From an uncultured Dehalococcoidia bacterium (lineage in GTDB: Bacteria > Chloroflexota > Dehalococcoidia > Lucifugimonadales > UBA3495), in assembly GCA_950072105.1 (NCBI GenBank), contig CATMOE010000005.1, positions 32,001-96,000 on the forward strand: a stretch of DNA of 64,000 nt. The letters are read 5' to 3'. Position numbers and translations under genes: made by a program. The notes below the pieces were generated by a model that worked only from the letters and a program-made list of their open reading frames with translations, was not told the DNA's origin and made no database searches. Position 1 is the stretch's first letter. The number at the start of each line of letters is the position of its first letter. Positions 1-14,302 of this stretch are shown piece after piece.

Positions 1-158
1 AGTACGATGTTCTTGAAACGCACCCCTTTTTATTCGAAAGAGATGTATCGTTATCATTCGGGTTAGACGACCCATGGTGGTAAGATTTCCCCTCGGGGCA
101 CTTAGAAGCTGAGAATCCTAAGCCGAGGATTCGCCGTATTTGCCGTTGGGAGACCTCG

Positions 159-365
159 ATGTTCCGCCCCGTGGCCTGCCCATTGAGAGCATTAATATTC
201 ACGATCTTTGCTCTTTTGACTCTTGGCGTAGCTGCTAGCGTCGCTGAGCCGACCCAGGTCCCTACCGCCGTTCCTCAGGTCGAACCTACGCCTGTTGATA
301 CTCCTGACGTAAGCGCGACCGTCATCGCCGCGATAGCAGCGACGGCCGAAGCCCAGAACCAGTAA
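159..365 (+). CDS. small secreted Pro/Thr-rich protein (possibly a truncated lipoprotein N-terminus)
   Basis: GGGAG upstream; hydrophobic signal-like segment followed by PT-rich linker and TPDVSATVIAAIAAT. Confidence 0.45.
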   Translation: MFRPVACPLRALIFTIFALLTLGVAASVAEPTQVPTAVPQVEPTPVDTPDVSATVIAAIAATAEAQNQ

Positions 366-602
366 GATGCCTGACTTGGCGTTGTAACCCAACGTTGCAG
401 CCCCCCAAGAAAGCCTCTGTAGTCATTCATTGTGACGCAGCTAAGGAGCAATCTCCACTACCCGATGGCGGATCGGCTTTAAGCTCTTTGGTGGGATATT
501 GTTGAGGAAAGGCTGCATAGGGGGTGGCGGTTTCGCGGCAAGAAAGGGGCCGAATCGCCTATTTTCGTGGTGATGACCAGCCATTTGGCGGGCGTCAAAG
601 GG

Positions 603-2042
603 CTACTTGCGGAACTTGTCCAGGGGCAGTTTGTCCACGGGAATCTTATCCAAAGGCAACTTGTCCAATGGAAGCTTACCCACAGGCAGCTTGTCGACGG
701 AGAAATCACTCAAAAGGCCGTCTAAAGGGGTATCTTCCAACTCGAGCTTGTCCACAAGACTGTCCAAAGGAATTGCATCTATGGGAACGTTATCGACGAA
801 AATCTTGCGCACTGGGGCCATCTTGGTCCAAGGAGGCATCTTCAATTCCGGAAATTCCGTGGGGAGTTTATCCACGGGTATCTTCTCTATGGTGACCTGG
901 TCCAGGGGAATGTTTTCCCATGGGATGCTGTCCTTTGGAACCACCTGCCACGCTTTTCTGGACGACTCTCTCTCGGCGTCGGCAGCGGTAACCAACCACC
1001 CAACGTTCAAGCAGGGATCGCTGTCGAAGGAATTGGACGGATCGCAACTGGATTGTAGCTCTCTCAAGGAGGCGTAATAGGATTTGAGGACGTGTTTAGG
1101 AAAGTCCAATAGCTGGAATAGGGCACTGGACTGGATGTCGTCCGGGGCCAACTGCGCGCCTTCCCCGTCGAACTGCAGTAGTTTGCCCACGTGCTCGTAG
1201 TCGATGAGCATCCCCGGGATGCGCGGAATAGGGTCGCCGTCCACGACCACCCGGTAGTTGTCCGGCACCAACTCTTCATAGGCCTGGCGGAACTTTTTCC
1301 CGCCGACCCTGGGCTGGCCGAAGGTGTAAACCGTGACCGGCCTCTGGGTGTGGGCCGCGATATCGAAGCTGCTCAAAACGGCCAGGGCGCCGCCCAGGCT
1401 GTGCCCTGTCACGTATATGTCCTTATCCGGGTGTTGGCCCACGTACTCAAGGATACGGTTCCGGTAGCGCAGATATTCGTTGTGGAAACCGGCATGAACG
1501 TTGATTTTCCGGTATTCCTTGGCGTTGGGCACAGAATCGTCGATGAAGTCGATTTTGGTGGGGTAGGCTCTGATGTCGGTCAAGACGTTCAAGGTCAGCT
1601 CCCAGCCGTCGTCGGAATCCGTGGAGCGAAAGGCAACCACCAGGTTATCGCCGGTGGTGGCGACGTAGGCTTGGCCACCGCTCATGGGAGGCGACTCGAC
1701 TCCCCAGATGTCTATCCCACTTCCCTCTTGATTGGTATCTCGGATTACTTCTCCCACCAACTCATACCGATTGTCGGCCAGCTTGTCCTTGATCGTGTCT
1801 TCGTCGGCCAAAACCCAGATGGTGTGTCGAAACATCCGCACTGCGTTTGTGGCGACATCCAGGCCGAATTCCTTTACGGCTTCATCGATGCTTTCTTCCA
1901 GTGCGGCCAACTTTTCCTGGACGGACAGCTGGGTAACCGAGGGAGGGTTCTCCGCGACCGCCACGGTCGGCGCTGACCCTCCGCAGGCCATCAAAAGCAT
2001 TGTCATCAAGCCGGACATGCCGGCGAAGGTCATCCGCAACAT
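603..2042 (-). CDS. lipase class 3 family lipoprotein with C-terminal (L/V)DK(L/I)P repeats
   Basis: lipobox LMA-C; VHAGF, VTGHSLGG nucleophile elbow, TFGQPRVG, DPIPRIP, YEHVG. Confidence 0.9.
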   Translation of the reverse strand: MLRMTFAGMSGLMTMLLMACGGSAPTVAVAENPPSVTQLSVQEKLAALEESIDEAVKEFGLDVATNAVRMFRHTIWVLADEDTIKDKLADNRYELVGEVIRDTNQEGSGIDIWGVESPPMSGGQAYVATTGDNLVVAFRSTDSDDGWELTLNVLTDIRAYPTKIDFIDDSVPNAKEYRKINVHAGFHNEYLRYRNRILEYVGQHPDKDIYVTGHSLGGALAVLSSFDIAAHTQRPVTVYTFGQPRVGGKKFRQAYEELVPDNYRVVVDGDPIPRIPGMLIDYEHVGKLLQFDGEGAQLAPDDIQSSALFQLLDFPKHVLKSYYASLRELQSSCDPSNSFDSDPCLNVGWLVTAADAERESSRKAWQVVPKDSIPWENIPLDQVTIEKIPVDKLPTEFPELKMPPWTKMAPVRKIFVDNVPIDAIPLDSLVDKLELEDTPLDGLLSDFSVDKLPVGKLPLDKLPLDKIPVDKLPLDKFRK

Positions 2043-2316
2043 AGCCCTTCCCGAAAAACCAAAGAGTTCAGGGCTTTATCATCCGCTATTTGCCACCTCC
2101 GACGCAAGCCGTTTGGAGGTAACCTGCTCTTACTATTGTTATCCAGCTGCCTTCCCCAGATGAGTTGACAGCGTCATCCGATGCTTTACCAACCTCATCC
2201 CGATGTCCCCAGCAATGTCATCCCGAGCGCAGCGAAAGATCTGGCGCGGGCCCCTCTCCCCGGCTTGCTTATCCTTTCCGCGAGGGTGTTATCATGGGGC
2301 CGAAAAGGGGGATGTT

Positions 2317-2511
2317 ATGAATTCATTTATGGACCGGGCCAAACGTAGTGGACTGCCGATTTGGGCCGCCCTGTTCGCCACTCTGATTATACTGGTGGCG
2401 ATCCTAGGCTTCATCATGGGAATGACCACCGTGGTCATGGGCATCGCCATCGTAGGAGCAGTGATTATTGGGGTCAGTGGGCTGGTGGTGCTGCGGAAGT
2501 TTTTTGCGTGA
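2317..2511 (+). CDS. small two-TM membrane protein (64 aa)
   Basis: purine-rich RBS before ATG 2317; two hydrophobic stretches with a basic C-terminus. Confidence 0.6.
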   Translation: MNSFMDRAKRSGLPIWAALFATLIILVAILGFIMGMTTVVMGIAIVGAVIIGVSGLVVLRKFFA

Positions 2512-2590
2512 TTGGAGGTGTCAGAAGTAACTCCAAGACAAGCACCATCACAATGTCCGTCTAGAGCTACTCCGGCCCGATGGCGCTAGT

Positions 2591-3115
2591 TTAGGGTAAG
2601 ACTGCACCGGTGCCGGGAGGGAGGTCCCAATTCTGGTTCTGGAGGTCGTGGATGTAGGCCACCTGACCGTGGCGATTGTTCTTGTGTCTGATTAAATGCC
2701 GCAAGTTTCCGGCCACACTCTGCTCGGGCCGGGACGGGCAGATGGGCTGATCAAGGTTGTCGGCCGTCAAATCGCCCAGCAGTCTTCGAATTCGCTCGCC
2801 GACAGCTTGAGAGTAACCCAATAAAACGGTCAGGTCCGGTATAGCCAACACCCGGAGGCTCATCCGATCAGCTGGATCCGGCGCATCCACGGGCTGGCCA
2901 AACTTCTCATGCCAACCGCCCACAACGTAGACCCGTTTTCCAGTCGGGGTATCAGATTGTCCTCGGCCCGTGTCACATGCCAGAGGATGACTCCGACATT
3001 GTTGGAGTAGGGCGAGCCGGCAAAGCACTTCTTCTTGGGTTAGATCCTCGCAGGTCTCTCTAAGCCTGATCGGTGCCTGCTCCAAACAGTCCGAGATAAA
3101 ACTTACCGAGGCCAC
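2591..3115 (-). pseudogene. DinB-family protein, frameshifted
   Basis: C-terminal LRHLIRHKNNRHGQVAY is in the ORF frame; the conserved NNVGVILWHVTRAED segment lies in another frame (~2918-3010). Confidence 0.75.
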
Positions 3116-3624
3116 AGCGCCCCCATACACCTGCCTACCAAGGCGTTTACGGTTCCTCAGGTTAGGAATTATACCCAGGCAAAGCAATCCCAGGAAACTT
3201 GGCAAGCTGGCCCGCTTTGTCAAATTCACCGAGGGGCCATGCTCCAAGGCCTACCCTTCCCACTTTAGATCTGAGGGCTGCTAAGCAACACGCGGTTTAA
3301 AATGCCGAATGAACCCAAAGTTAGCTAGATTCTATTCTTTCGACTTGATATTCTTTGTTTACCAGTAAGAATATCGACGGGTTCTACCGGATCACGAGAT
3401 GAAGTAGGATCGGTGAGGGTTGACAGCCTATATTAGGCATTGTCCGACCGGGGGGCACGACCAGAACCCTTGGTGCTACGCCGGTGGTCTCAGTTGACAC
3501 TCTGCCATTGCCACCAAATCCCCCCTATCCCGGCGCAGTCAGGTTTTAAACTTCACCTGCTTCATTCTGGCGTGTTCCCGGATTTTTTGGGTCACGTTAT
3601 GGATTGGAGTGTTAGATAGACTGT

Positions 3625-3653
3625 AAAAGGCCACCTTAATCGGTGTCCTCTTT
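3625..3653 (-). terminator. imperfect terminator-like hairpin downstream of tRNA-Sec fragment B
   Basis: AAAAGGCCACC-TTAATC-GGTGTCCTCTTT. Confidence 0.4.
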
Positions 3654-3682
3654 AGTTCATTGTGAACCAAAATTAAAATAAA

Positions 3683-3752
3683 TGGCGGGAGTGCGAGGGG
3701 GTCGAACCCACCTGCCCAGCTCGTCACGAGGTATGACGGATTTGGAGTTCGC
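3683..3752 (-). repeat. degenerate 3' half of tRNA-Sec (att-like copy B)
   Basis: 62/70 identical to 8412-8481 by manual alignment; no 5' tRNA half. Confidence 0.9.
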
Positions 3753-4259
3753 TCATAGAGGTACCGATAGGTTTTTCTAGCGCTGTACGGTTTGTATTTC
3801 GTGCCTAACATGGGCTGACTCGTCCATATGGTCATGTTCGTTGGTGGGAAGTTCTTGCACATTTCCGTGCACATTTTTTCGAGGCCGGAAGTGGGGCGAT
3901 CAGCTAATCCGATTAGATGTCGTTCCGAGGATGATTCTCATAAAGAGTCAATGGCTCGAGCGGATATTCTTAACCCGTCAAATTATTGATCTTCCTGAAA
4001 TTTTTATCGGGATCGAGCATCTCTGATTCCTTAATCTAAAAAACCCCTTCCAGCGGCTACCGTCTACACGATTTCCTCCGATTCGCTAGCATGAAGTTCC
4101 AACAATGATATGAGTTCACTGTCAGGCTTAGACGTAGGACTAGGCAATGTCAATTTGGCTAGCATATAATCGGTATTGATTCTTATGGCCTGGACGATAG
4201 TTAAATATCTCTTGCCAACTTGTATCACCACGTGAAACTTAGTTATCAAGGAGAGGAAC

Positions 4260-6488
4260 ATGCCAGAAGCGTCCCAGATCATTTACACCAAGATCGATGA
4301 GGCCCCGGCCCTAGCATCGCACTCGTTGTTGCCTATCCTCCGGGCCTTTACCAAGGGGTCCGGGATTGAACTGGAGGCCTGGGATATCTCGTTGACCGGC
4401 CGCATCATCGCCAATTTCCCAGATAATCTGACCGAAGAGCAAAAGCTCCCCGATTATCTGTCTATGTCGAGTGTACTGTGCGACGACCCGTCGGCGAACA
4501 TAATCAAACTGCCCAATATCAGTGCCTCTATTCCCCAGTTAAAAGGCGCGCTCAAGGAGTTGCAGGAAAAGGGATACGATATCCCCGACTACCCCGATGA
4601 GCCTGTGACCGACGAACAACACAAATTGTTCGAGCGGTTTTCCAGAGTGTTGGGAAGCGCGGTAAACCCGGTGCTGCGGGAAGGGAACTCCGATCGCCGG
4701 TCGGCCACCGCAGTCAAGGAGCACGGTAAGCGCAATCCGCATCGGATGATGCGGGACTGGCCGGAGGTTTCTAAATCCCGCGTTGCCCACATGACCAGTG
4801 GGGATTTCTACGGCAGTGAACAGGCCGTGACGATTTCGGCGGCGGGTTCGGCGGTGATTGAGTTCGTGGACCTAAATGGGCGTGGGACCGTGCTCAAATC
4901 CGATATTCCCTTGACCGCTGGTGAAATCATCGATTGTGCCGTGATGGATATCAGGGAGCTGCGCGCATTCTACGCTGAAGAGATGGACAAGGCCAAAGCT
5001 GATGGCGTGTTGCTTTCTCTACATCTGAAGTCGACCATGATGCGCGTGTCCGATCCGATAATTTTCGGACATTGTGTGTCGATTTTCTATGAGGACGTGT
5101 TTAAGAAACACGCGGCTGAGATGGATGAGATTGCCGTGAACCCTGACAATGGAGTGGCTGAACTCTACACCAAGATTCGGGATCTGACCGACGAAAAACG
5201 AGAGGAGATCGAGGCAGATATCCAGGAGGTTTATCGCGTCCGTCCCGAATTGATGATGGTGGACTCCAACCGGGGTATCACCAATCTGCACGTGCCGAGC
5301 GATGTGATTATCGATGCCACCATGCCGGTGATGGTCCGCGATGGCGGAAAAACCTGGGGCCCGGATAACGAGCTGCACGACACGGTCGCAATGATTCCTG
5401 ATCGCTCTTATGCGACCCTATATCAGGCGATTATCGAAGATTGCCAGGAGCATGGGGCGTTCGATCCGGCCACCATCGGCAGTGTCGCGAATGTCGGCCT
5501 GATGGCCCAAAGGGCCGAAGAATATGGGTCTCACGACAAGACCTTTCAATCTCCCGGTAACGGGACGATTCGGGTGGTGGACGCCTCAGGCACGACTCTG
5601 ATGGAACAGCGCGCCCAAGAAGGCGATATCTTCCGAATGTGCCAGACCAAGGACGAGCCGATCCAGGACTGGGTCAAGCTTGGAGTCAATCGGGCTAGGT
5701 TGACCGGCACGCCGGCCATCTTTTGGTTGGACCCGAACCGGGCTCACGACGCCGAGCTGATCAAGAAGGTGGACCAATATCTGCCCACGCACGACACGGC
5801 AGGGTTGGAAATTCGCACTATGTCTACTATCGATGCGATGGCATTTACGATGGGGCGCAGCCGAGCCGGCCAGGACACGATCTCCGTGACCGGCAACGTG
5901 CTGCGTGACTACCTGACCGACCTCTTCCCCATCCTGGAATTGGGTACCAGCGCCAAGATGCTTTCCGTGGTCCCTCTGCTCAAAGGTGGTGGGATGTTTG
6001 AGACGGGCGCCGGCGGTTCGGCCCCACGGCACGTACAGCAGTTCCTGCAGGAGGGGCATCTGCGCTGGGATTCTCTGGGTGAATTCTGTGCCCTAGTCGC
6101 TTCCTTCGAGCATCTAGGTCAGGTATTTGACAACGACAAGGCTAAGCTCCTGGCCGCGACCCTGGATCAAGCGATCGGGCAGCATTTGGAACACAATCGG
6201 GCACCATCGCGCCGGGTGAACGAACTTGACACCCGAGGCAGTCATTTCTACCTTGCTCTATACTGGGCGGAAGCGCTGGCCAAGCAGACCCAAGATCCAG
6301 AGCTGCAAGCCCGCTTTGCCGGAGTAGCTAAGCAGTTGGGCGACAACGAAGACAAGATCGTTCAGGAGCTTAACGACGCTCAGGGACATCCGGTGGACAT
6401 CGGTGGGTATTACCTTCCCAATGATGATATGACCGCCAAATGCATGCGCCCCAGCGCCACTCTGAACGCAATCGTGGACGCGCTCTAA
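4260..6488 (+). CDS. icd: NADP-dependent isocitrate dehydrogenase, monomeric type
   Basis: 742 aa; [83 protein letters not shown]. Confidence 0.98.
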
Positions 6489-6541
6489 TAGCACGCCGGC
6501 TGGCTGAGGCGCGGTCTTCGGCCAGCCGGTCACAATTCGGC

Positions 6542-6582
6542 AAAAAGAAGCTCCCGGCCGTTACAGTCAGGGGCTTTTTCTT
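6542..6582. terminator. bidirectional terminator-like hairpin after icd
   Basis: AAAAAGAAGCTCC...GGGGCTTTTTCTT. Confidence 0.65.
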
Positions 6583-6618
6583 ATTCGAAAGCAGGCGATT
6601 TCGTGCCTAATCAAGTGT

Positions 6619-6685
6619 TGGCGGGAGTGCGAGGGAGTCGAACCCACTTACCCCGCTCGTCTCGAGGCACAACGGATTTGAAGTC
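6619..6685 (-). repeat. 3' half of tRNA-Sec (att-like copy A)
   Basis: 65/67 identical to 8412-8478; runs from just before the anticodon loop to CCA. Confidence 0.95.
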
Positions 6686-7011
6686 TCTTAGCAACGGTGT
6701 TTAGCTATGCCGTTGGATGTTGTGTCGTAGGCCGGTTGTAGCTAACAACACGGGGCAACACGGTTCGATCGGCAACGAACGTGCACCTTCTGTGCACATC
6801 AAGGCTTCTGCTCTCTAGCCCGCGATCTCCGCCTTGAGAGAGCCATGCTTTACATGTTGTTCTATATTGCCAGATATGTTTTTAGAACAACCTGTCCGAC
6901 TCCTTTTCGCTCGTTTGTATCTGTAGTGTTGCCGGGTGTTGCTACGTGTTAACATGTTTGACAGTAAAATGGCAGCAAGGATAACCGATTTTACTTCGTA
7001 CTGAAATTGTT

Positions 7012-7097
7012 TTCCCCGCAGCCCTCTTTCCGTTGCTCTTTGTGAGCAGCAATCGCATGTTTGGCTTGAGGTTCCGCTCTAGCTGTACCCCAGGCGC
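7012..7097. repeat. 86-bp direct repeat, copy 1 (copy 2 at 7903-7988)
   Basis: 74/86 identical, ungapped; the two copies flank yajQ. Confidence 0.9.
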
Positions 7098-7160
7098 GAT
7101 ATCTCTAAGGGCCTTCGCCCCGACATCCCAGGAACAGGAATCTGAAGGAGCCATCCCGCA

Positions 7161-7646
7161 ATGCCATCATTCGATGTAGTCTCCCGGACCGACCTTATGG
7201 AAGTCGATAACGCCATCCACGGCGTCGAACGTGAGATCAAGCAGCGGTTCGACCTGGCCAACACCAAGTGCGCCGTTTCCCGCTCGGAAAATACGATGAC
7301 GTTGATAGCCGACAACAACATGAAGATGGAACAGGTGGTAGAACTTTTGCGCCTATACCTGGCCAAGCGAAAGGTAGAGTTGGGGGCCCTGGATTTCGGC
7401 ACACCCCAGAACGCTGCGGGCGGCGTTTTGAGGGAGACGGCGTCCATCAAGCAGGGGATCGACGGTGACCTGGGTAGAATTATCAGCAAGGAAGTGAAGC
7501 GCGCCAAGATGAAAGTCCAGGTGACGATCCAAGGCCAGGAACTCCGGGTCTCGGCCAAGAAGAGGGACGACCTGCAGGCGACGATCTCACTGATCAAAGG
7601 GATGGAGAACCAGCAACCTCTGCAGTTCGTGAATTACCGGGACTGA
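7161..7646 (+). CDS. yajQ: YajQ family nucleotide/c-di-GMP-binding protein
   Basis: MPSFDVVS...EVDNA, RFDL, IQGQELRVSAKKRDDLQ, PLQFVNYRD; AAGGAG RBS. Confidence 0.97.
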   Translation: MPSFDVVSRTDLMEVDNAIHGVEREIKQRFDLANTKCAVSRSENTMTLIADNNMKMEQVVELLRLYLAKRKVELGALDFGTPQNAAGGVLRETASIKQGIDGDLGRIISKEVKRAKMKVQVTIQGQELRVSAKKRDDLQATISLIKGMENQQPLQFVNYRD

Positions 7647-7752
7647 CCATGTAGGTATTGGACCAATCACAGGGCCAGTGCCTGTGGACCTGCGGCCCGG
7701 ACCAGGTGGTACTACCTGTCCACCCGCGCCTGCCATCCGGACTACTCACCCT

Positions 7753-8025
7753 TCACGTGGCGTAGGCGGACAAGCTCTGACCAACAGCCCACCGCTTCGT
7801 GCTTTTTAATAATAAGAAGCTTTCCCAGAACCCGAGGATGCCAAGAGCCGCGGGCTGCTTTCGCTGACCACGATCCGCCGAACCAACGCGGGTTAGCTTG
7901 CATTCCCCGCAGCCCTCTTTACGCTGCTCTTTGTGAGCCACAATTGCCTGTTCAGCTTGAAGTTCTGTTCTCGCTGTACCCCAGGCGCCACATCGACACC
8001 GTGGTCGTTAGCGTAATTTGGCCAT
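7753..8025 (-). pseudogene. small Cys/His protein remnant with an in-frame TAA
   Basis: MAKLR*RPRCRCGAWGTARTELQAEQAIVAHKEQRKEGCGECKL; differences from the paralogous copy fall mostly at third codon positions of this frame. Confidence 0.5.
7903..7988. repeat. 86-bp direct repeat, copy 2
   Basis: see 7012-7097. Confidence 0.9.
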
Positions 8026-8358
8026 CAATATTGCTGCCGACGGCTCTCGTCTGCTTACTCGCCTGGAAGGGTAAATTAAAAGATGGCCAGGGATCCTGTA
8101 GGTTTCCTGCCAAGGTGGCGGGAATGACGATAGTGAGCGCTTTTATTTACACTGGAATTGGAAAGATTCCTTGGGTGGTCTGCTTTTGATGGCCAAGCCC
8201 GACTCAGGGGAGTTTAGCGCTGTTGGAGCCTAGTTATCAAATGATGAAGCCGGGCAGAAACGGGGCGGCCTGGCAGCCTCCTTGCTGGCCCTTGATGCCA
8301 AGCTGTCCCGGAAATAGTCTGTGCACATTGGCCCGAGAAAGCGGTAACTGGCCACCCC

Positions 8359-8394
8359 AAAAAGACAGCCCCCGGGCGGTCCCAGGGGCTGTTT
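8359..8394 (-). terminator. intrinsic terminator downstream of tRNA-Sec
   Basis: ACAGCCCC...GGGGCTGT stem, followed on the minus strand by CTTTTT. Confidence 0.75.
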
Positions 8395-8411
8395 GTTGAG
8401 CCTAATTTAAA

Positions 8412-8508
8412 TGGCGGGAGTGCGAGGGAGTCGAACCCACCTACCCCGCTCGTCACGAGGCACAACGGATTTGAAGTCCGCAAGAGCCACCGGGCCCCTT
8501 CCACTCCC
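8412..8508 (-). tRNA. selC: tRNA-Sec (anticodon TCA)
   Basis: 97 nt; GGGAGTG/CACTCCC acceptor, long D stem with 4-nt loop, GCGGA-CTTCAAA-TCCGT anticodon arm, long variable arm, TTCGA loop, G discriminator plus CCA. Confidence 0.93.
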
Positions 8509-8528
8509 CCGATAAACTGCTGGTCTGT

Positions 8529-8858
8529 TTAGCTGGCCAGCACCGCGTCAATCTTGCTCTTCAAGACTCCCTTGGGGACCGCGCCGACTATCTGGTCAAC
8601 CGGCTGGCCGTTTTTGAAGAAGATCAGGGCGGGTATGCTCCGGATGCCGTACTTCGTGGCGATGGCAGGAGCGGTGTCCACGTCGAGCTTGCCGACATTG
8701 ATCTGACCGTCATATTCTACCGCCATCTCATGTACGGTCGGGGCAATCATCTTACAAGGACCACACCACTCAGCCCAGAAATCCACCATTACGGGCAGAT
8801 CCGACTCTAGCACTTCCGCATCCCAATTGTCCTCGTTGACTTCAAAGGGTTCCGACAT
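8529..8858 (-). CDS. trxA: thioredoxin
   Basis: DFWAEWCGPCK, GIRSIP; GGAGG RBS. Confidence 0.97.
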   Translation of the reverse strand: MSEPFEVNEDNWDAEVLESDLPVMVDFWAEWCGPCKMIAPTVHEMAVEYDGQINVGKLDVDTAPAIATKYGIRSIPALIFFKNGQPVDQIVGAVPKGVLKSKIDAVLAS

Positions 8859-9221
8859 TGTTTATGCCTCCATAGCATTTTGGTTTACGTATACTTAGAT
8901 GCGTTGGGGACCGTTGCGGTTCATTAATTGCCCCAATGGCCCCCCAGATTTGCCCAGTTTATACCCGAGCCAGACCAAGGTCAACATCGGGGAGTCGCTG
9001 CTTGGCGCGCGGGAATCGGCAGCGTCCCCTCCTTAATGAATGAGGGAATTAAGCGGAGGTTTTTCCGCGGAGAGGGGACGACCCCCCTGTAGTCCCCCCC
9101 TCTAAAAAGGGACATATACTTGGTCTCTCGGGAACTGCTAACGTTGTGATTGGCACGGAACTGAACACGAATCATTGGCTTCCGGCCCTCCTTACTTGTA
9201 TATTGTTGTTTAGGTACTTAA

Positions 9222-11060
9222 TTGCAAGAATTGAAATTAGTTAAAGGACAACAGATAACCCTGTCCCTGGTCTCCTGGGGGCGCTTGGGCGAAGCCATGG
9301 GCCAATGGGAGGAGACGGACGTCTTCGTGACCGGGGGCATACCAGGGGAGAAGGTGGTCGCCGAGGTGGTCAGGGTGCACCGGCGCTACGCCGCGGCGTC
9401 GGTGATAGAAGTGTTGGAGGCGTCGGAATGGCGGGTCGAGCCGCCTTGCCCCTACTACGGCGTGTGCTCCGGATGCCAGTGGCAGCACGTTGACTACCAG
9501 CACCAGCTGACCGTCAAGCAGGAAAAAGTGGCCGACGCTTTGCATCGGGTGGGAGACTTCATCGAATCTCCGGTGTTGCCGGTAAGGCCGTCGCCCATCC
9601 AGTACGGTTATCGCAACCACGCCAGGTTCACCATAAACCGGGATGGCGACCTGGGTTTCGTGAATCGGCAGACCCGGCAGTTCGTACGGATCGATCGCTG
9701 CATGCTGATGCATGAGGGTATCAACGGCCCTCTGGCGGAGCTGCAAGGCAAATGCGCCGAGACATCCCAGCTTTCCATAAGGTCGGGGCAGGAAACCAGG
9801 GATACTCTGGTGCAGCCGACCCTGATCAATCCGGAGATCTCCCTGGCCAGCGGCCAGAAATTCTACGGTGACTCGATCGACGGGCACGCGTTTCGGGTGT
9901 CGTCTCCCTCGTTCTTCCAGGTAAACGTGGAGCAGACGGTTCAAGTGGTGCAGGTCATCCGGGAAGCGCTGGATGTGAAGAAAACCGACGTACTGCTGGA
10001 CGCCTACACCGGAGTCGGCACCTTTGCCGTCCTTATGGCGCCCTACGTCCGGAAAGTAATCGCGGTGGAGGAGTCCTCGGCGGCGGTGGCCGACGCCCGG
10101 CTGAATACGGGCGGGATCCCCAACATCGAATTGGTCCTGGGTAGGACCGAAGACGTGCTGCCCAACCTTACGGAGAAACCAGACGCGGCGATATTGGACC
10201 CGCCCCGCGCCGGTTGCCATCCCCGGACGATAGAGAGCTTGATCGAGCTGTCGCCGCCCAAGATAGCCTATGTGTCCTGCGACGCGGAAACCTTGGGCCG
10301 AGACCTGAAACTACTGTGCGAAAGCGCCTACACGTTGGAACAGGTAGTCCCTTTGGATATGTTCCCCCAAACCCATCACGTGGAGTGCGTGGCCTTGCTC
10401 ACCCGTAAAGCTCCGGCTGCTCCAATCATTTTGGCGTCGGCATCGCCTCGGCGCCGGGAGTTGCTGACTGGCTTGGGACTGGACTTCCAGGTGGTTCCCG
10501 CCGATATCCTGGAGGAGCCTCAGCCCGGCGAGATTCCTTTGAAGATGGCGGAACGTTTGTCCTTGGAAAAGGCCCAGGCCGTGGCCGCCCGGTTCCAGCA
10601 TGGGTTCGTCATCGCCGCCGATAGCGTCGTGGTACACCAGGGCCGGCCCTACGGAAAGCCGATCGACGCCGATGATGCCCGCCGGATGTTGCGGGAGCTA
10701 CGGGGCACCAGCCATCAGGTGGTCACCGGGATCACCGTGATGAACGTTGAAGACGGCCGGGTTCTAACGGACAGCATGGCCAGCGACGTGTCGATTCGGG
10801 ACTTCACGGACGGCGAGATGGAGATTTCCATCGCGACGGGCACACCGATGGACAAAGCAGGGGCCTACGCGGTGCAGGACGAAGAATTTCGCCCGGCCCG
10901 ATCCTGGGAAGGGTGCTACACCAACATCATCGGCCTGCCTCTTTGCCGCCTGAGCCAGATGCTGGCCGAGTTGGGGTTTGATGGGACACTGAGCCATCCC
11001 GATGCGGACTCGCCCGTCTGCGGTCCGACCTGCCCGCTCCGGCCGGAAGTAACACCATGA
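9222..11060 (+). CDS. rlmD: fusion of RlmD/RumA-type uracil-5 RNA methyltransferase and Maf nucleoside triphosphate pyrophosphatase
   Basis: TRAM, CPYYGVCSGCQW Fe-S motif, SFFQVN, DAYTGVGT, DPPRAG, YVSCD, DMFPQTHHVE; then in frame ILASASPRRRELL, ADSVV, GKP, DKAGAYAVQ, NIIGLP. Confidence 0.92.
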   Translation: MQELKLVKGQQITLSLVSWGRLGEAMGQWEETDVFVTGGIPGEKVVAEVVRVHRRYAAASVIEVLEASEWRVEPPCPYYGVCSGCQWQHVDYQHQLTVKQEKVADALHRVGDFIESPVLPVRPSPIQYGYRNHARFTINRDGDLGFVNRQTRQFVRIDRCMLMHEGINGPLAELQGKCAETSQLSIRSGQETRDTLVQPTLINPEISLASGQKFYGDSIDGHAFRVSSPSFFQVNVEQTVQVVQVIREALDVKKTDVLLDAYTGVGTFAVLMAPYVRKVIAVEESSAAVADARLNTGGIPNIELVLGRTEDVLPNLTEKPDAAILDPPRAGCHPRTIESLIELSPPKIAYVSCDAETLGRDLKLLCESAYTLEQVVPLDMFPQTHHVECVALLTRKAPAAPIILASASPRRRELLTGLGLDFQVVPADILEEPQPGEIPLKMAERLSLEKAQAVAARFQHGFVIAADSVVVHQGRPYGKPIDADDARRMLRELRGTSHQVVTGITVMNVEDGRVLTDSMASDVSIRDFTDGEMEISIATGTPMDKAGAYAVQDEEFRPARSWEGCYTNIIGLPLCRLSQMLAELGFDGTLSHPDADSPVCGPTCPLRPEVTP

Positions 11061-11341
11061 ACTTCATGGGCATGGGTATCATGGAGCTTGCGGTGATCTT
11101 CCTGGTTTCCTTTTTAGTGCTGGGTCCTTCCAAGTCCATCGACATGGCGCGAACCGCAGGCAAGGTGATCCGGGACCTGCGGAGCGCCATGTCGGATCTG
11201 ACTTCTGCGGTGGACTTGGACCAGACTTCCCCTCCCTCGGCCCCTTCGCAGGCATCAACGACGGCCCCTACGAATGAACTCCAGCCCGGAGTCGCAGTTC
11301 CCTTAGAAGAAAACACCACCGGCAAGTCTGAGGATGAGTGA
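11057..11341 (+). CDS. tatB: twin-arginine translocase TatA/TatB family subunit (TatB-like)
   Basis: GMGIMELAVIFLVSFLVLGP; overlaps the upstream stop (ATGA); precedes tatC. Confidence 0.85.
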   Translation: MNFMGMGIMELAVIFLVSFLVLGPSKSIDMARTAGKVIRDLRSAMSDLTSAVDLDQTSPPSAPSQASTTAPTNELQPGVAVPLEENTTGKSEDE

Positions 11342-12098
11342 CCAACAGCTAACTTTGCTTCAACACCTGGGGGAGCTGAGAAAGCGGCTTTTTATCTCCG
11401 TTTTGGCTCTATTGGCGGGCAGCGCCGTATCCTTTGCTTTTTTCAAGCAGATCATCGAGTTTTTGGTCCGGCCCGCCCGGGATCTGGGCGGGGATGCCGG
11501 AGCCCAGTTGATCTACATCGAGGTGACCGAACTATTGACGACCAGCGTCAAGGTGTCTTTCGTCGGCGGATTCATCTTGGCCTCCCCGGTGATCCTGTAC
11601 CACCTCATCATGTTCGTCGCGCCGGGTCTGACCGGAAGGGAGAAGCGCTATTTGCTCGCCTTTCTGCCGGCGGTGCTGGGGGCGTTCGCCGCGGGCGTAG
11701 CTTTCGCCTACTTCGTTATGACCCCGCCGGCGCTCCACTTCTTGCTTACCTTCGGTGGCGACGTGGCGACGCCGATGATTCGGATAAGCAACATCGTCAA
11801 TCTGATGATCCGGCTTCTCGTCTGGATGGGTATCGTTTTTGAGACACCCCTGGTTATATACCTATTGGCGCTTCTGGGCATTGTCAACACCCGAATACTG
11901 GGAAAGTTTCGACGATATTGGGTGATCGTTTCTTTCGTACTGGCCGCGATCATCACGCCGACATTCGACCCCTTCAACCAAGTCCTGGTGGCGGCGCCCC
12001 TGCTGGTACTGTACGAACTCGGCGTCCTGCTGGCCCGCTTGGCCGGACGCAAGCGAACCCGGTCTGAGGCGATCGTTCCTTTTTCCGAGCCTGACTGA
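11334..12098 (+). CDS. tatC: twin-arginine translocase TatC
   Basis: HLGELRKRL, FVAPGLTGREKR, FETP, AAIITPTFDP. Confidence 0.97.
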   Translation: MSDQQLTLLQHLGELRKRLFISVLALLAGSAVSFAFFKQIIEFLVRPARDLGGDAGAQLIYIEVTELLTTSVKVSFVGGFILASPVILYHLIMFVAPGLTGREKRYLLAFLPAVLGAFAAGVAFAYFVMTPPALHFLLTFGGDVATPMIRISNIVNLMIRLLVWMGIVFETPLVIYLLALLGIVNTRILGKFRRYWVIVSFVLAAIITPTFDPFNQVLVAAPLLVLYELGVLLARLAGRKRTRSEAIVPFSEPD

Positions 12099-12128
12099 CC
12101 AGTGGTGCGCGGTAACGTCCCGCCCCAA

Positions 12129-12160
12129 TAAAAAGGGACCGGCAATCGCCGGTCCCTTTG
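12129..12160. terminator. bidirectional terminator between convergent tatC and tatA
   Basis: AAAAGGGACCGGC-AATC-GCCGGTCCCTTT. Confidence 0.85.
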
Positions 12161-12196
12161 ACTTACCCGAATGATGTTCTATCGACGCTAGTTCGT

Positions 12197-12400
12197 CTAA
12201 AGCGGATCTTTGTCTGAACTGGTCGTGGCCTCACTCCCGGCAGCTTCATTGTCGTCTTCACCGGTTACAGCGCTCTTAAACGTCCTGATACCTTTGCCCA
12301 GGGAGGAGCCTATCTCCGGCAGCCGCTTAGCGCCGAAAATCAGCATGATTACCAGCAAAATGATTAATAGCTCCGGTATGCCCAGCGGGCCGATTCTCAT
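12197..12400 (-). CDS. tatA: twin-arginine translocase TatA
   Basis: MRIGPLGIPELLIILLVIMLIFGAKRLPEIGSSLGKGIRTFK. Confidence 0.95.
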   Translation of the reverse strand: MRIGPLGIPELLIILLVIMLIFGAKRLPEIGSSLGKGIRTFKSAVTGEDDNEAAGSEATTSSDKDPL

Positions 12401-12727
12401 GTTGGTCACTTTCCTTGTAAGCCATTCTAAGCCATTTCTATCTGGCTTTAGACTGTAATGATAACAAAAATGCCCGTCCCGGCACAATTGGCTAAGGAAC
12501 GAGTTCTACGCTAGATAGGCCTGATATTAAGCCAGAGATGATTGACAGCACCAAAGTCCGACACTAAGCTCCAAATACTTTGCTCGGACTCTGCTAGCGG
12601 CATCGGGCCGGGTGATGTGTGGAATCCGAATTGATAGTTTGAGACAACCCAGAAAGTGCTATCATCACGGGAATCAGGACGATCTGGGAAATCCTAACTT
12701 AGAAGACGAAGCGTTCAAGGAGGGTCT

Positions 12728-14302
12728 ATGAAATATGACGTTATCATCGTTGGCGGAGGAGCGGCTGGATCAGTGCTGGCCAGCAGGCTGGCTGAAAACC
12801 CGAATACATCCGTTCTATTGCTGGAAGCCGGGACGGATTACCCGGACCCAGACAATCTTCCGGACGAGATAAAGTGGGGCCACACGAGATATGCGGAATC
12901 CCCAGACTCGAAACACAACTGGGCGTTGCGAGGAACGATCACCGAGGAGCAAGGGGAGATCCACGTGGCCCAGGGCAAGGTTATCGGGGGAGGGTCGTCC
13001 ATCAACGGCCAGGCGATGCAAAGGGGATTGCCCGAGGATTTCGACTCGTGGTCTTCTTTAGGCAACGAAGAATGGTCTTATACCAAAGTCTTGCCCTTCT
13101 TTAGAAAATCGGAGCATGATCTAGACATTCGAGATGATTTCCATGGAACGGACGGGCCGATGCCGGTAAGGCGCCGCCAGTCAGGCGCCTGGCCTGACAT
13201 CCAAAAAGCCTTCCATGCCGCCTGTTTGGAGGCTGGATTCGGGGCCTGCGAAGATACCAATGGTCCGAACCCCTCCGGCGTTGGGGTGGCTCCCACGAAC
13301 AACCTTGACGGCATGAGAATGAGCGCCGCCATGACTCATCTCAACCCGATGCGCCACCGTCTTAACCTTACGGTGCGGGGAGGGGTTTTCGTCAGGAAGG
13401 TCTTGATCGAGGATCTAAAGGCCGTGGGCGTGGAAGTCGAAAGCGGGGGAGAGGTCTTCAACGTTGAAGCAGACCGGGTTGTGCTGAGCGCCGGGGCTAT
13501 CAAATCGCCCCACCTGCTCATGTTATCGGGGATCGGCCCCAAGGACCAACTTGAGAAATTTGGTATAACGGCGGTTCATGATCTCCCCGGCGTAGGGCAG
13601 AACCTGATGAACCACCTGAGCGCCCAGGTTACCTTCAAGGTCAAAGAAGGTGTCACCATCGCTGCCGATCACGAAGCGGCTCACTTTAGTTTGCATTACA
13701 CCTCCCAAGGGTCCAGCGAGACCAACGATATGTTGCTGAGGACTACCGCCGTTGTCGACCAAAGAGAGGAGCGAGTAGCTGGTGTACGGACCAAGTACCT
13801 GACCGGTGAAGTTCCACCGGACCAGGTGGCCCGGATATCGTGTACTCTCGGGTTGCCCGACGGCTCGGGAAACGTCAGCTTGGCGTCCGCCGACCCCAGC
13901 GTGCAGCCGTCCTTTAACTACCGTTATCTCCAGCATCCAAACGACATCCGGCGGGTAAGGGAAGGCGTGCGGATGGCCATCAGCTTTCTGGAATCCGACG
14001 CGTACAAAGACTTGGCCGATCACCGGATCCAACCAACAGACGACATTCTGGCCGACGACGACGCTTTGGACCTGTGGATACGCCAGATCGTGGGAAGCGC
14101 CAGGCACGTGTCGGGCACCTGTAAGATGGGACCTGATTCAGACCCAATGGCGGTAGTCGACCAATACTGCAGCGTCAAGGGAGTTCAAGGGTTGTCGGTG
14201 GTTGATGCGTCGGTGATGCCGCGAGTTCCCAGGTCCGGGGGCGCCCATGCGACGGTTGTCATGATAGGGGAACGCGCCGCCGATTGGATCGCGCCGCGTT
14301 AA
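12728..14302 (+). CDS. GMC family FAD oxidoreductase (choline dehydrogenase/MftG-like)
   Basis: IVGGGAAG, LLLEAG, GKVIGGGSSING, LLMLSGIG, HVSGTCKMG, VVDASVMP. Confidence 0.93.
   Translation: MKYDVIIVGGGAAGSVLASRLAENPNTSVLLLEAGTDYPDPDNLPDEIKWGHTRYAESPDSKHNWALRGTITEEQGEIHVAQGKVIGGGSSINGQAMQRGLPEDFDSWSSLGNEEWSYTKVLPFFRKSEHDLDIRDDFHGTDGPMPVRRRQSGAWPDIQKAFHAACLEAGFGACEDTNGPNPSGVGVAPTNNLDGMRMSAAMTHLNPMRHRLNLTVRGGVFVRKVLIEDLKAVGVEVESGGEVFNVEADRVVLSAGAIKSPHLLMLSGIGPKDQLEKFGITAVHDLPGVGQNLMNHLSAQVTFKVKEGVTIAADHEAAHFSLHYTSQGSSETNDMLLRTTAVVDQREERVAGVRTKYLTGEVPPDQVARISCTLGLPDGSGNVSLASADPSVQPSFNYRYLQHPNDIRRVREGVRMAISFLESDAYKDLADHRIQPTDDILADDDALDLWIRQIVGSARHVSGTCKMGPDSDPMAVVDQYCSVKGVQGLSVVDASVMPRVPRSGGAHATVVMIGERAADWIAPR

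Follow-up and report, generated by a model that had tools for sequence, protein, structure and literature searches.

Cis-mobilizable elements (CIMEs) and their accretion in tandem have been described for the ICESt1/ICESt3-type elements of Streptococcus (PMC5704250). According to that account, CIMEs lack integration and transfer genes while keeping attL and attR, occur one behind another at a tRNA gene's 3′ part and accrete as later elements enter the regenerated target, and 'gene capture' is described among the consequences. The same traits recur in the locus reported here, an array of two single-gene units, holding icd and yajQ, downstream of the tRNA-Sec gene in a stretch of 64,000 nucleotides (the window, to whose first letter all positions refer) from an uncultured marine Dehalococcoidia bacterium: integration and transfer genes have been lost, and putative attL and attR sites are kept, with both arms and both cores present. 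Unlike the CIMEs of that account, the units measure 1.7 and 2.9 kb, hold one gene each and have chromosomal cargo that includes the genome's sole icd; no functional partner accompanies them, the assembly showing no adjacent functional element, and their mobilisation would be hypothetical.

The tandem ssrA islands of Dehalococcoides include 15 without an integration module, which have been discussed as possible CIMEs or fixed relics (McMurdie et al. 2011, PMC3146451). The hosts belong to the same bacterial class, and in both cases an array lies downstream of one small RNA gene and is bounded by direct repeats of its 3′ end. As presented there, the ssrA islands use the T-loop of tmRNA, a 20-bp repeat and the serine recombinase DsiB, and carry rdhA, whereas the window has the anticodon loop of tRNA-Sec, a repeat of 67–70 nt, a tyrosine integrase with arm-type sites, and central-metabolism or nucleotide-binding genes as cargo. 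The locus shows none of the ssrA, DsiB and 20-bp-repeat marks, and the related full elements encode PF00589 integrases. The islands of the Islander collection (PMC4383910) likewise have a regenerated tRNA and a displaced fragment at the island end, with an identity block that begins in the anticodon stem-loop, and the window contains both the intact target tRNA and a displaced 3′ direct repeat at the far end; Islander islands are defined by an integrase gene, in place of which a stub of 13 codons is all that adjoins the tRNA here.

Integron cassette arrays are superficially alike in having ordered single-gene units at one site. Unlike integrons, the window has no intI, attI, attC or common promoter, and no integrase gene is adjacent; its att sites are long and bear arms, its repeats are tRNA halves, and its genes have their own promoters, icd having kept its promoter region. 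Williams reportedly distinguished in 2002 an anticodon-loop 'sublocation' class of integration. In a limited literature search we found no description of such arrays in marine Dehalococcoidia, or of a relocated icd, which is not a claim that none exists.

The stretch is probably a stack of decayed integrative elements at tRNA-Sec, its units being CIME-like relics with captured chromosomal genes. An earlier note, made from the letters alone, had instead favoured minimal cassettes mobilised in trans. The host assembly (G000) is a metagenome-assembled genome (MAG) of 4.08 Mb in 164 contigs, 92% complete and with 6% contamination; its genus consists of three genomes (G000, G001 and G002), and the family set comprises 202.

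Attachment sites at tRNA-Sec

The intact tRNA-Sec gene, with anticodon TCA, lies at 8412–8508 on the minus strand (ARAGORN; Rfam RF01852, 66.4 bits with a gathering score of 47). Two displaced 3′ parts follow on the same strand, downstream in the tRNA sense, both running from the anticodon loop to CCA. Fragment 1 (6619–6685) corresponds to tRNA positions 31–97, with 65 of 67 nucleotides identical (97.0%), and fragment 2 (3683–3752) to positions 28–97, with 62 of 70 (88.6%); divergence therefore grows with distance from the intact gene. A genome-wide BLAST search returned them with E-values of 1.5e-27 and 5e-15, respectively, and found no further tRNA-Sec piece in the 4.08-Mb assembly. The copies are separated by about 1.7 kb (yajQ unit) and 2.9 kb (icd unit). 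A hairpin comes after each of the three: that at 8365–8392 is terminator-like, with 12 pairs and a T run (−32 kcal/mol, z = −3.6), the region 3615–3682 also folds well (z = −3.8) and the region 6535–6618 more weakly (z = −1.7). The earlier note had described all of this, namely the three copies, the outward rise in divergence and the hairpins, and had attributed the repeats to att-type duplication by tyrosine integrases; the description is borne out, and the attribution agrees with the conserved arms and the integrase stub set out below.

The intact gene is the attL of the array, with the repeated core formed by its 3′ part from about position 28–31. Fragment 1 is the attR of the yajQ unit and an attL-like site for the icd unit, and fragment 2 is the outermost attR. 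Because fragment 2 has eight substitutions in all, one of them changing the anticodon to CCA, its competence for recombination is uncertain. The flank after it (3615–3682, minus strand), which has a hairpin at 3625–3653 and no P′ box, is presumably the original tRNA-Sec trailer.

All tRNA-Sec copies except the outermost are followed, in the tRNA sense, by a P′ module that consists of 7–9 nt, a TTAGGCACGAAAT-like box and a terminator hairpin. The module also follows tRNA-Sec copies in G104, G079, G128, G046, G097, G124 and G008, and a scan for a tRNA-Sec end followed by a P′ box found it kept in at least 122 metagenome stretches. It is absent after tRNA-Sec in insertion-free genomes (G008:C6 and G005) and after outermost fragments, and therefore comes in with the element. 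Beside the intact gene, the P′ arm of a tRNA-proximal element remnant (8321–8411, minus strand) has a TTAGGC box 7 nt after CCA, the hairpin 8365–8392 and a AATGTGCAC arm-type box at 8321–8329, in the same order as the corresponding parts of the integrase-bearing locus L097. The P′ arm of the icd unit (6530–6618, minus strand) has a TTAGGCACGAAAT box at 6598–6610, a hairpin at 6542–6582 and a degenerate box at about 6530–6539.

The P arms, which lie 5′ of the fragments, fall into two classes. The class I arm of the yajQ unit (6686–6800, minus strand) contains tandem GTGCAC boxes at 6781–6799 and a TTAGCTAC box; homologues precede, on the 5′ side, tRNA-Sec fragments of G004, G079 and G128 and tRNA-Lys(CTT) fragments of G104, G004, G059, G042 and G183, the total being 8 of the 202 family genomes. 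The class II arm of the icd unit (3753–3876, minus strand) contains tandem AATGTGCA boxes at 3856–3876, CCATATGG, a TTAGGCACGAAAT box at 3797–3809 and a 45-nt linker to the core. It recurs (alignment A3) at tRNA-Sec fragments of G001, G042, G009 and G128 and at a tRNA-Trp fragment of the host genome itself, and in total in 10 of the 202 genomes.

Two islands with an integrase are present in the host genome, one at tRNA-Arg(TCG) (contig C130, far end on C43) and one at tRNA-Trp (C24, far end on C18). On the tRNA side, both read core, TTAGGCAYGAA box, terminator, two tandem boxes and stop codon of the antisense integrase; at the far end, both read two tandem boxes, AACTTCCC, CCATATGG, TTAGGCAC (also written TTAGGCACGAA), about 45 nt and core. 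Both window units have arms of this type. In the whole genome there are five copies of the 11-mer TTAGGCAYGAA, and four of them stand within 60 nt of a tRNA 3′ fragment. The tandem-box motif had no match in viral contigs and, in species-representative genomes, only six loci, all in the host's family. Since predicted P and P′ clusters of arm-type boxes flank the core of both units, with a spacing that is also kept in other genera and at other tRNAs, the tRNA-Sec copies are genuine att sites of a family of tyrosine-integrase elements aimed at the tRNA anticodon loop.

Many other tRNA fragments of the host genome start at positions 25–36 (Lys, Leu(CAA) three times, Trp, Thr, Arg and others). Those 3′-half fragments that have P arms (Leu three times, Arg, Trp, Lys, Thr; C51:2271-2634, C43:1320-1502, C18:7684-7728, C74:14459-14510, C128, C66 and C110) could serve to map the whole mobilome of this element family. 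Two other arrangements were seen at tRNA-Sec itself. At G073:C1:3196272-3197910 (L024), two full-length tRNA-Sec genes lie 1.45 kb apart around a single AAA_16 ATPase gene. In G086:C3 (L037) and G075:C5 (L038), the 5′ half of the gene (positions 1–44) is duplicated 2.5 kb upstream of the intact one; the interval holds an alpha/beta-hydrolase gene and a P4-like integrase lies downstream. This is a different type of insertion at the same tRNA.

Integrase remnants and the probable decay of the elements

According to Pfam, no integrase open reading frame (ORF; PF00589) is present in 3539–8504, and tblastn of six integrases against window positions 3000–9000 gave a best E-value of 0.18. What is present, on the plus strand at 8276–8317, is the C-terminal stub of an integrase gene, ASLLALDAKLSRK*, made up of 13 codons (8276–8314) and a stop codon (8315–8317), the rest of the gene having been deleted. 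Ten of its 13 residues are identical to the C-terminus of the 379-aa integrase of L097, with the stop codon in the same place, and at the DNA level it is 84–86% identical over 36–44 nt to L097, L170 and the tRNA-Lys unit of G104. The latter is a 1.7-kb unit without an integrase, whose P′ side is 84% identical to the DNA of the stub region. When L097 and the window are aligned beyond the terminator, both have the AATGTGCAC box, then AGACTATTT, then the integrase stop codon. A first search for remnants (tblastn with the integrases of G004, C130, G097, G086 and G075) had found no match in the window, and the stub was recognised only after L097 had been found. The earlier note's statement that the interval has no integrase holds for ORFs but leaves out the stub.

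Full integrases hold the position of the stub in L097, in L093, in the tRNA-Lys island of G004 and in the host contigs C130 and C24. In L097 and L093, the integrase comes directly after the tRNA-Sec P′ arm, and L097 encodes a helix-turn-helix protein and an AAA_25 ATPase besides. The tRNA-Lys island of G004 is 9.5 kb long, with the integrase adjoining the tRNA and a class I arm at the far end. The host genome has 11 PF00589 matches. Four of these integrases belong to the present family and are 32–44% identical to that of the G004 island, and three of the four adjoin tRNA-Arg, tRNA-Trp and tRNA-Val; a closely related integrase was not found in the assembly.

How frequently an integrase accompanies the P′ arm was surveyed in the 80 metagenome loci that had flanking DNA (of the 122 stretches), with 82 P′ junctions. 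An integrase alignment of at least 180 aa stands directly after P′ at two of them (L093 and L097), and C-terminal integrase stubs of 43–96 aa are found at four; 40 have at least 1.5 kb downstream with no integrase match, and 36 are too short to judge. Among the loci counted are some that share a contig and overlap (L083/L084 and L085/L086), the contig of the window itself (L124) and the near-identical L116, as well as L100, which was counted as integrase-less yet has a short stub visible by eye.

Within the genus, the array is in different states. In G001, 170 nt of other sequence stand where the window has 8000–8411, so that neither the P′ arm nor the stub is present; the stub would therefore belong to a third and latest insertion, specific to the G000 lineage. 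G001 has also undergone a deletion of 587 bp (window 6488–7074) between 7-bp CGCTCTA microhomologies, through which fragment 1 was lost and the yajQ leader clipped. Fragment 2 is present in G001; in G002 it is down to 43 nt and the class II arm is missing. The icd unit is found in all three genomes, the yajQ unit in two, and the P′ arm with the stub in G000 only, in agreement with the earlier proposal of a tandem array whose oldest unit lies farthest out.

Relocation of icd and the two settings of yajQ

The ORF at 4260–6488 encodes a monomeric NADP-dependent isocitrate dehydrogenase (IDH; Pfam PF03971, NCBIfam TIGR00178) and belongs to a captured native icd block (3958–6494, plus strand) that includes about 300 nt of ancestral upstream region. 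The native icd locus of G008 is homologous to the window from 3958 to 6494, and icd therefore moved together with about 300 nt of its own upstream region; a promoter scan predicts a sigma-70-like promoter at 4141–4170, upstream of the gene. Elsewhere (11 genomes of 8 other genera), icd adjoins mdh and/or a gene for a DUF255-thioredoxin protein. In G000, G001 and G002, this slot reads DUF255–MFS–mdh without icd, which is found at tRNA-Sec instead. There is no linkage between icd and tRNA-Sec in 8 other genera, where closed genomes have hundreds of kb between the two.

A tree of 14 IDH sequences recovers the genus as monophyletic (100/100), with G004 as its sister (98/97), and mdh and DUF255 likewise show higher identity to G004. 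The move of icd was therefore a relocation within the lineage rather than a distant import. No other IDH is recognisable in the 92%-complete assembly, the two PF00180 proteins being LeuB and a tartrate-dehydrogenase-like protein. The gene is the genome's only isocitrate dehydrogenase gene and has been inherited vertically.

Among 54 genomes in genus g2, five (G155, G167, G168, G170 and G175) also have the central 70 nt of the class II arm, 75–80 nt upstream of native icd (L066:9904-9969, L067:9991-10058 and L068:10120-10188, and also in G155 and G170) and oriented to the gene as they are in the window. Neither a tRNA-Sec piece nor a P′ box is near this motif. It may be the trace of an early encounter of icd with an element of this kind, and perhaps points to capture through recombination between scattered arm relics. 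Two further connections with g2 were considered and dropped: against import of icd from the g2 subclade that has the arm motif, or export to it, the IDH tree does not group the two, and the MFS gene in the vacated slot has no similarity, at E 1e-20, to the MFS gene beside g2 icd.

The ORF at 7161–7646 encodes YajQ/DUF520 (Pfam PF04461, NCBIfam YajQ). Together with a leader (D2a, 7007–7103) and about 100 nt downstream, it forms the captured yajQ block (7022–7749, plus strand). A second copy of yajQ stands in a plain chromosomal context of the same genome (G000:C6:17129-17857), with 89% identity in DNA over 7022–7749 and 93% in protein, and only 10 of the 30 relatives searched, the host genome included, have the gene. 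Of the earlier description of the cargo as housekeeping genes, the part on icd is correct, and that on yajQ half so, the gene being patchy and present in a second copy. A partial duplicate of the leader (D2b, 7898–7994, plus strand; 84%), with no gene behind it and present in G001 too, is a rearrangement relic; with it, non-coding relics make up about 570 nt of the yajQ unit. As a side observation, a 97-nt non-coding leader is conserved upstream of all yajQ copies (7007–7103; G000:C6:17776-17857) and has no Rfam match.

The yajQ unit also contains a nested tRNA-Glu attR relic (6819–6978, minus strand), in which an M2 P arm (6853–6978) is followed by positions 31–55 of tRNA-Glu(ctc) (6819–6843; 25 nt). 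Elsewhere in the host genome, M2-type arms adjoin tRNA-Arg and tRNA-Leu fragments. In G002, yajQ, a PNPOx gene and an M2 arm lie between two complete tRNA-Glu 3′ halves, with no integrase. The yajQ block must therefore once have belonged to a tRNA-Glu unit and later have joined the tRNA-Sec array. With icd out of its native slot and yajQ at tRNA-Glu in a sister species, the capture of genes that the earlier note had supposed is borne out. The tRNA-Glu(CTC) array of G002 has one intact gene and three 3′ halves (C234:6-83, C251:2496-2545, C39:24186-24229 and C39:25834-25878).

Probable history of the array, competing explanations and surroundings

The following order of events and route of gene capture would account for the locus. 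Recombination by the tyrosine integrase of the family would take place at the anticodon loop of the target tRNA gene, and every element would bring its own tRNA 3′ part and a terminator-bearing P′ arm, so that the old 3′ part is pushed outwards. At least three insertions would have taken place at tRNA-Sec: first, that of the unit now holding icd, the oldest and genus-wide; then that of the unit now holding yajQ, common to G000 and G001; and finally one of which only the P′ arm and the last 13 integrase codons would be left beside the tRNA. Later deletions would have taken the integrase and the other element genes and left the recombination arms. Having departed from the DUF255–icd–mdh slot with its own promoter, icd would, as the sole IDH gene, fix its unit in place, and the second copy of yajQ would have arrived together with part of the tRNA-Glu attR. 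The earlier note had mentioned, as its alternative, large islands eroded to one useful gene each. That alternative fits better than minimal cassettes, except that the retained genes came from the chromosome and not from the original cargo of an island.

Several observations weigh against this history. Simple aberrant excision, as the route of capture, would lose one arm, yet both are present in both units. Within one genus, two different tRNAs have integrase-less units that contain yajQ: tRNA-Glu in G002, and tRNA-Sec, with its array, in G000 and G001. Absence of an integrase is the majority state, seen at 40 of the 46 informative metagenome junctions. Integrase-less units of 1.05–2.9 kb with varied cargo stand at tRNA-Sec in G104, G079, G109, G073 and G128 and at tRNA-Lys in G104, and several units in other genera are just 1.05 to 2.0 kb long, which could fit a cassette lifestyle. 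In the icd unit, no integrase remnant was found, so that its origin from a full element would follow from its arms alone. A cognate integrase could have been missed in an assembly that is 92% complete and in 164 contigs. Finally, L116, a metagenome contig of 2,525 nt that is 99.6% identical to window 4195–6685 over 2,491 nt, runs from the P′(B) arm into an intact-type tRNA-Sec with 6 nt of thioredoxin-side flank, without the yajQ unit.

Most of these points would be expected if the units were minimal integrase-less cassettes with working att sites, moved in trans by an integrase elsewhere or by a transient helper, with tRNA-Sec serving as a gene-capture array; we nevertheless regard this explanation, the one preferred in the earlier note, as unlikely. 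Stubs next to the P′ arm, found both in the window and in the G104 tRNA-Lys unit, show that these units once had their own integrase; counting the relatives, such stubs range from 13 to 96 codons, and integrase-bearing elements with the same ends exist at tRNA-Sec (L097 and L093) and at tRNA-Lys (G004). This is largely the outcome that the earlier note had named as refuting its reading. The yajQ unit is not streamlined, in view of its non-coding relics, D2b among them. The host's own integrases are distant (32–44% identity) from that of the G004 island, the sole full element with a class I arm, and three of the four sit at other tRNAs (Arg, Trp and Val). The internal att site has been deleted in G001 and the outer one eroded in G002. 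As for L116, both diagnostic core positions are tRNA-type and the join is therefore in the last 29 nt, outside the anticodon loop where such an integrase would be expected to cut; besides, 2 nt of the contig's T stem are deleted (compared with window 8412–8514). Because G001, 6–7% diverged, has the yajQ unit, the L116 form would be a recent precise loss, but the position of the join fits homologous recombination or an assembly chimera better than a crossover in the anticodon loop, and L116 is suggestive only. The broader proposition that, in these marine Dehalococcoidia, single genes in integrase-less units between tRNA halves, with full recombination arms, are exchanged among tRNA genes and among cells by a working system, driven in trans by resident or passing integrases, is similarly doubtful. 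If it were true, chromosomal and even core genes such as icd would be re-filed at tRNA 'docks', in a tRNA-anchored analogue of the integron.

Several observations speak for stability. The stretch is kept at 0.93 or more of sampled words in 19 runs from 15 studies, of marine, hydrothermal-vent and subsurface origin. Contigs from three runs of independent studies match it at 99–100% and cover every junction, crossing from icd into fragment 1, from there into the yajQ unit, and from the P′ arm into the tRNA, and G001 has the same order on one contig at 91–94% identity. The earlier note had named a fixed order in all relatives, with no excised circles, as an outcome against its reading; the order is fixed in G000, G001 and three independent metagenomes. 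The circular junctions that the note had proposed to look for did not come to light: no supported excision or circle joint, from 3753 to 6618 or from 6686 to 8411, was found in three contig runs and one raw-read run, a search of low power as contigs drop rare variants and the raw-read run (X22) is thin and mostly at 90–95% identity. Two candidates were set aside. A joint of 6610 to 8413 in run X8, with a 24-nt side and 8 foreign letters, was read as the tRNA–P′ junction of a relative, and two raw reads of X22 joining 8477 to 3761, with 12 foreign letters, as the fragment–P-arm junction of a relative.

The same contigs bear on the idea that the array is an artefact of binning or assembly, a chimeric contig joined through tRNA repeats. 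The host assembly is a contaminated MAG (6%) of 164 contigs, and assemblies of relatives do break at these repeats, as in G002; with the order of G001 and the bridging contigs on the other side, we consider an artefact barely conceivable. Nor is it at all probable that the copies arose by local segmental duplication or replication slippage of the tRNA-Sec 3′ end, with no mobile element and with the genes as native neighbours. Such an origin would agree with the lack of an integrase ORF in the interval, but two findings already contradict it, namely the conserved arms, which recur in integrase-bearing islands and other genera, and the integrase stub; moreover, the copies begin at the anticodon loop like other tRNA fragments in the genome, and icd and tRNA-Sec are not neighbours in the 8 other genera.

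A stack of decayed elements at tRNA-Sec, which we continue to prefer, would document an anticodon-loop-targeting element family with a defined att architecture in an abundant uncultured marine group, and a decay series that can be seen in full, from the integrase-bearing element to the bare att-flanked relic. It is unusual that a relic should be the permanent home of a core gene of the tricarboxylic acid cycle that is gone from a locus conserved across at least 8 genera. This relocation, together with the presence of the accessory gene yajQ at two tRNAs within one genus, raises the case above the routine and makes it a concrete example of core gene order reshaped by the remains of mobile elements. 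It also calls for caution with island-prediction tools that require an integrase.

Around the array, Pfam and NCBIfam identify lipase and DinB-like genes on the far side of the icd unit and thioredoxin, a TrmA–Maf fusion, tatA and tatC on the 5′ side of tRNA-Sec. The spacer ORFs 3539–3874, 6942–7154, 7944–8189 and 8214–8504 have no Pfam match and are treated as non-genes. An Rfam search of window 1–14000 and the g2 icd upstream region returned tRNA-Sec alone, the arms and the D2 leader matching no RNA family. Neither the DinB-like gene nor the lipase gene adjoins tRNA-Sec in the other genera that were fetched. The DinB-like gene beside fragment 2 aligns in two frames in G001 (L011:5341-5977), which suggests a possible frameshift or pseudogene. 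The TrmA–Maf fusion is a single ORF of 612 aa (window 9222–11060), in which a tRNA (uracil-5) methyltransferase domain is fused to a Maf domain; its position adjoining thioredoxin and tRNA-Sec is also kept in other genera (L019 and L069). Elsewhere in the host genome, a short palindromic REP-like repeat of about 35–45 nt (G000:C17:21281-21435; L065:281-435) occurs in dozens of copies in genera g1 and g3.

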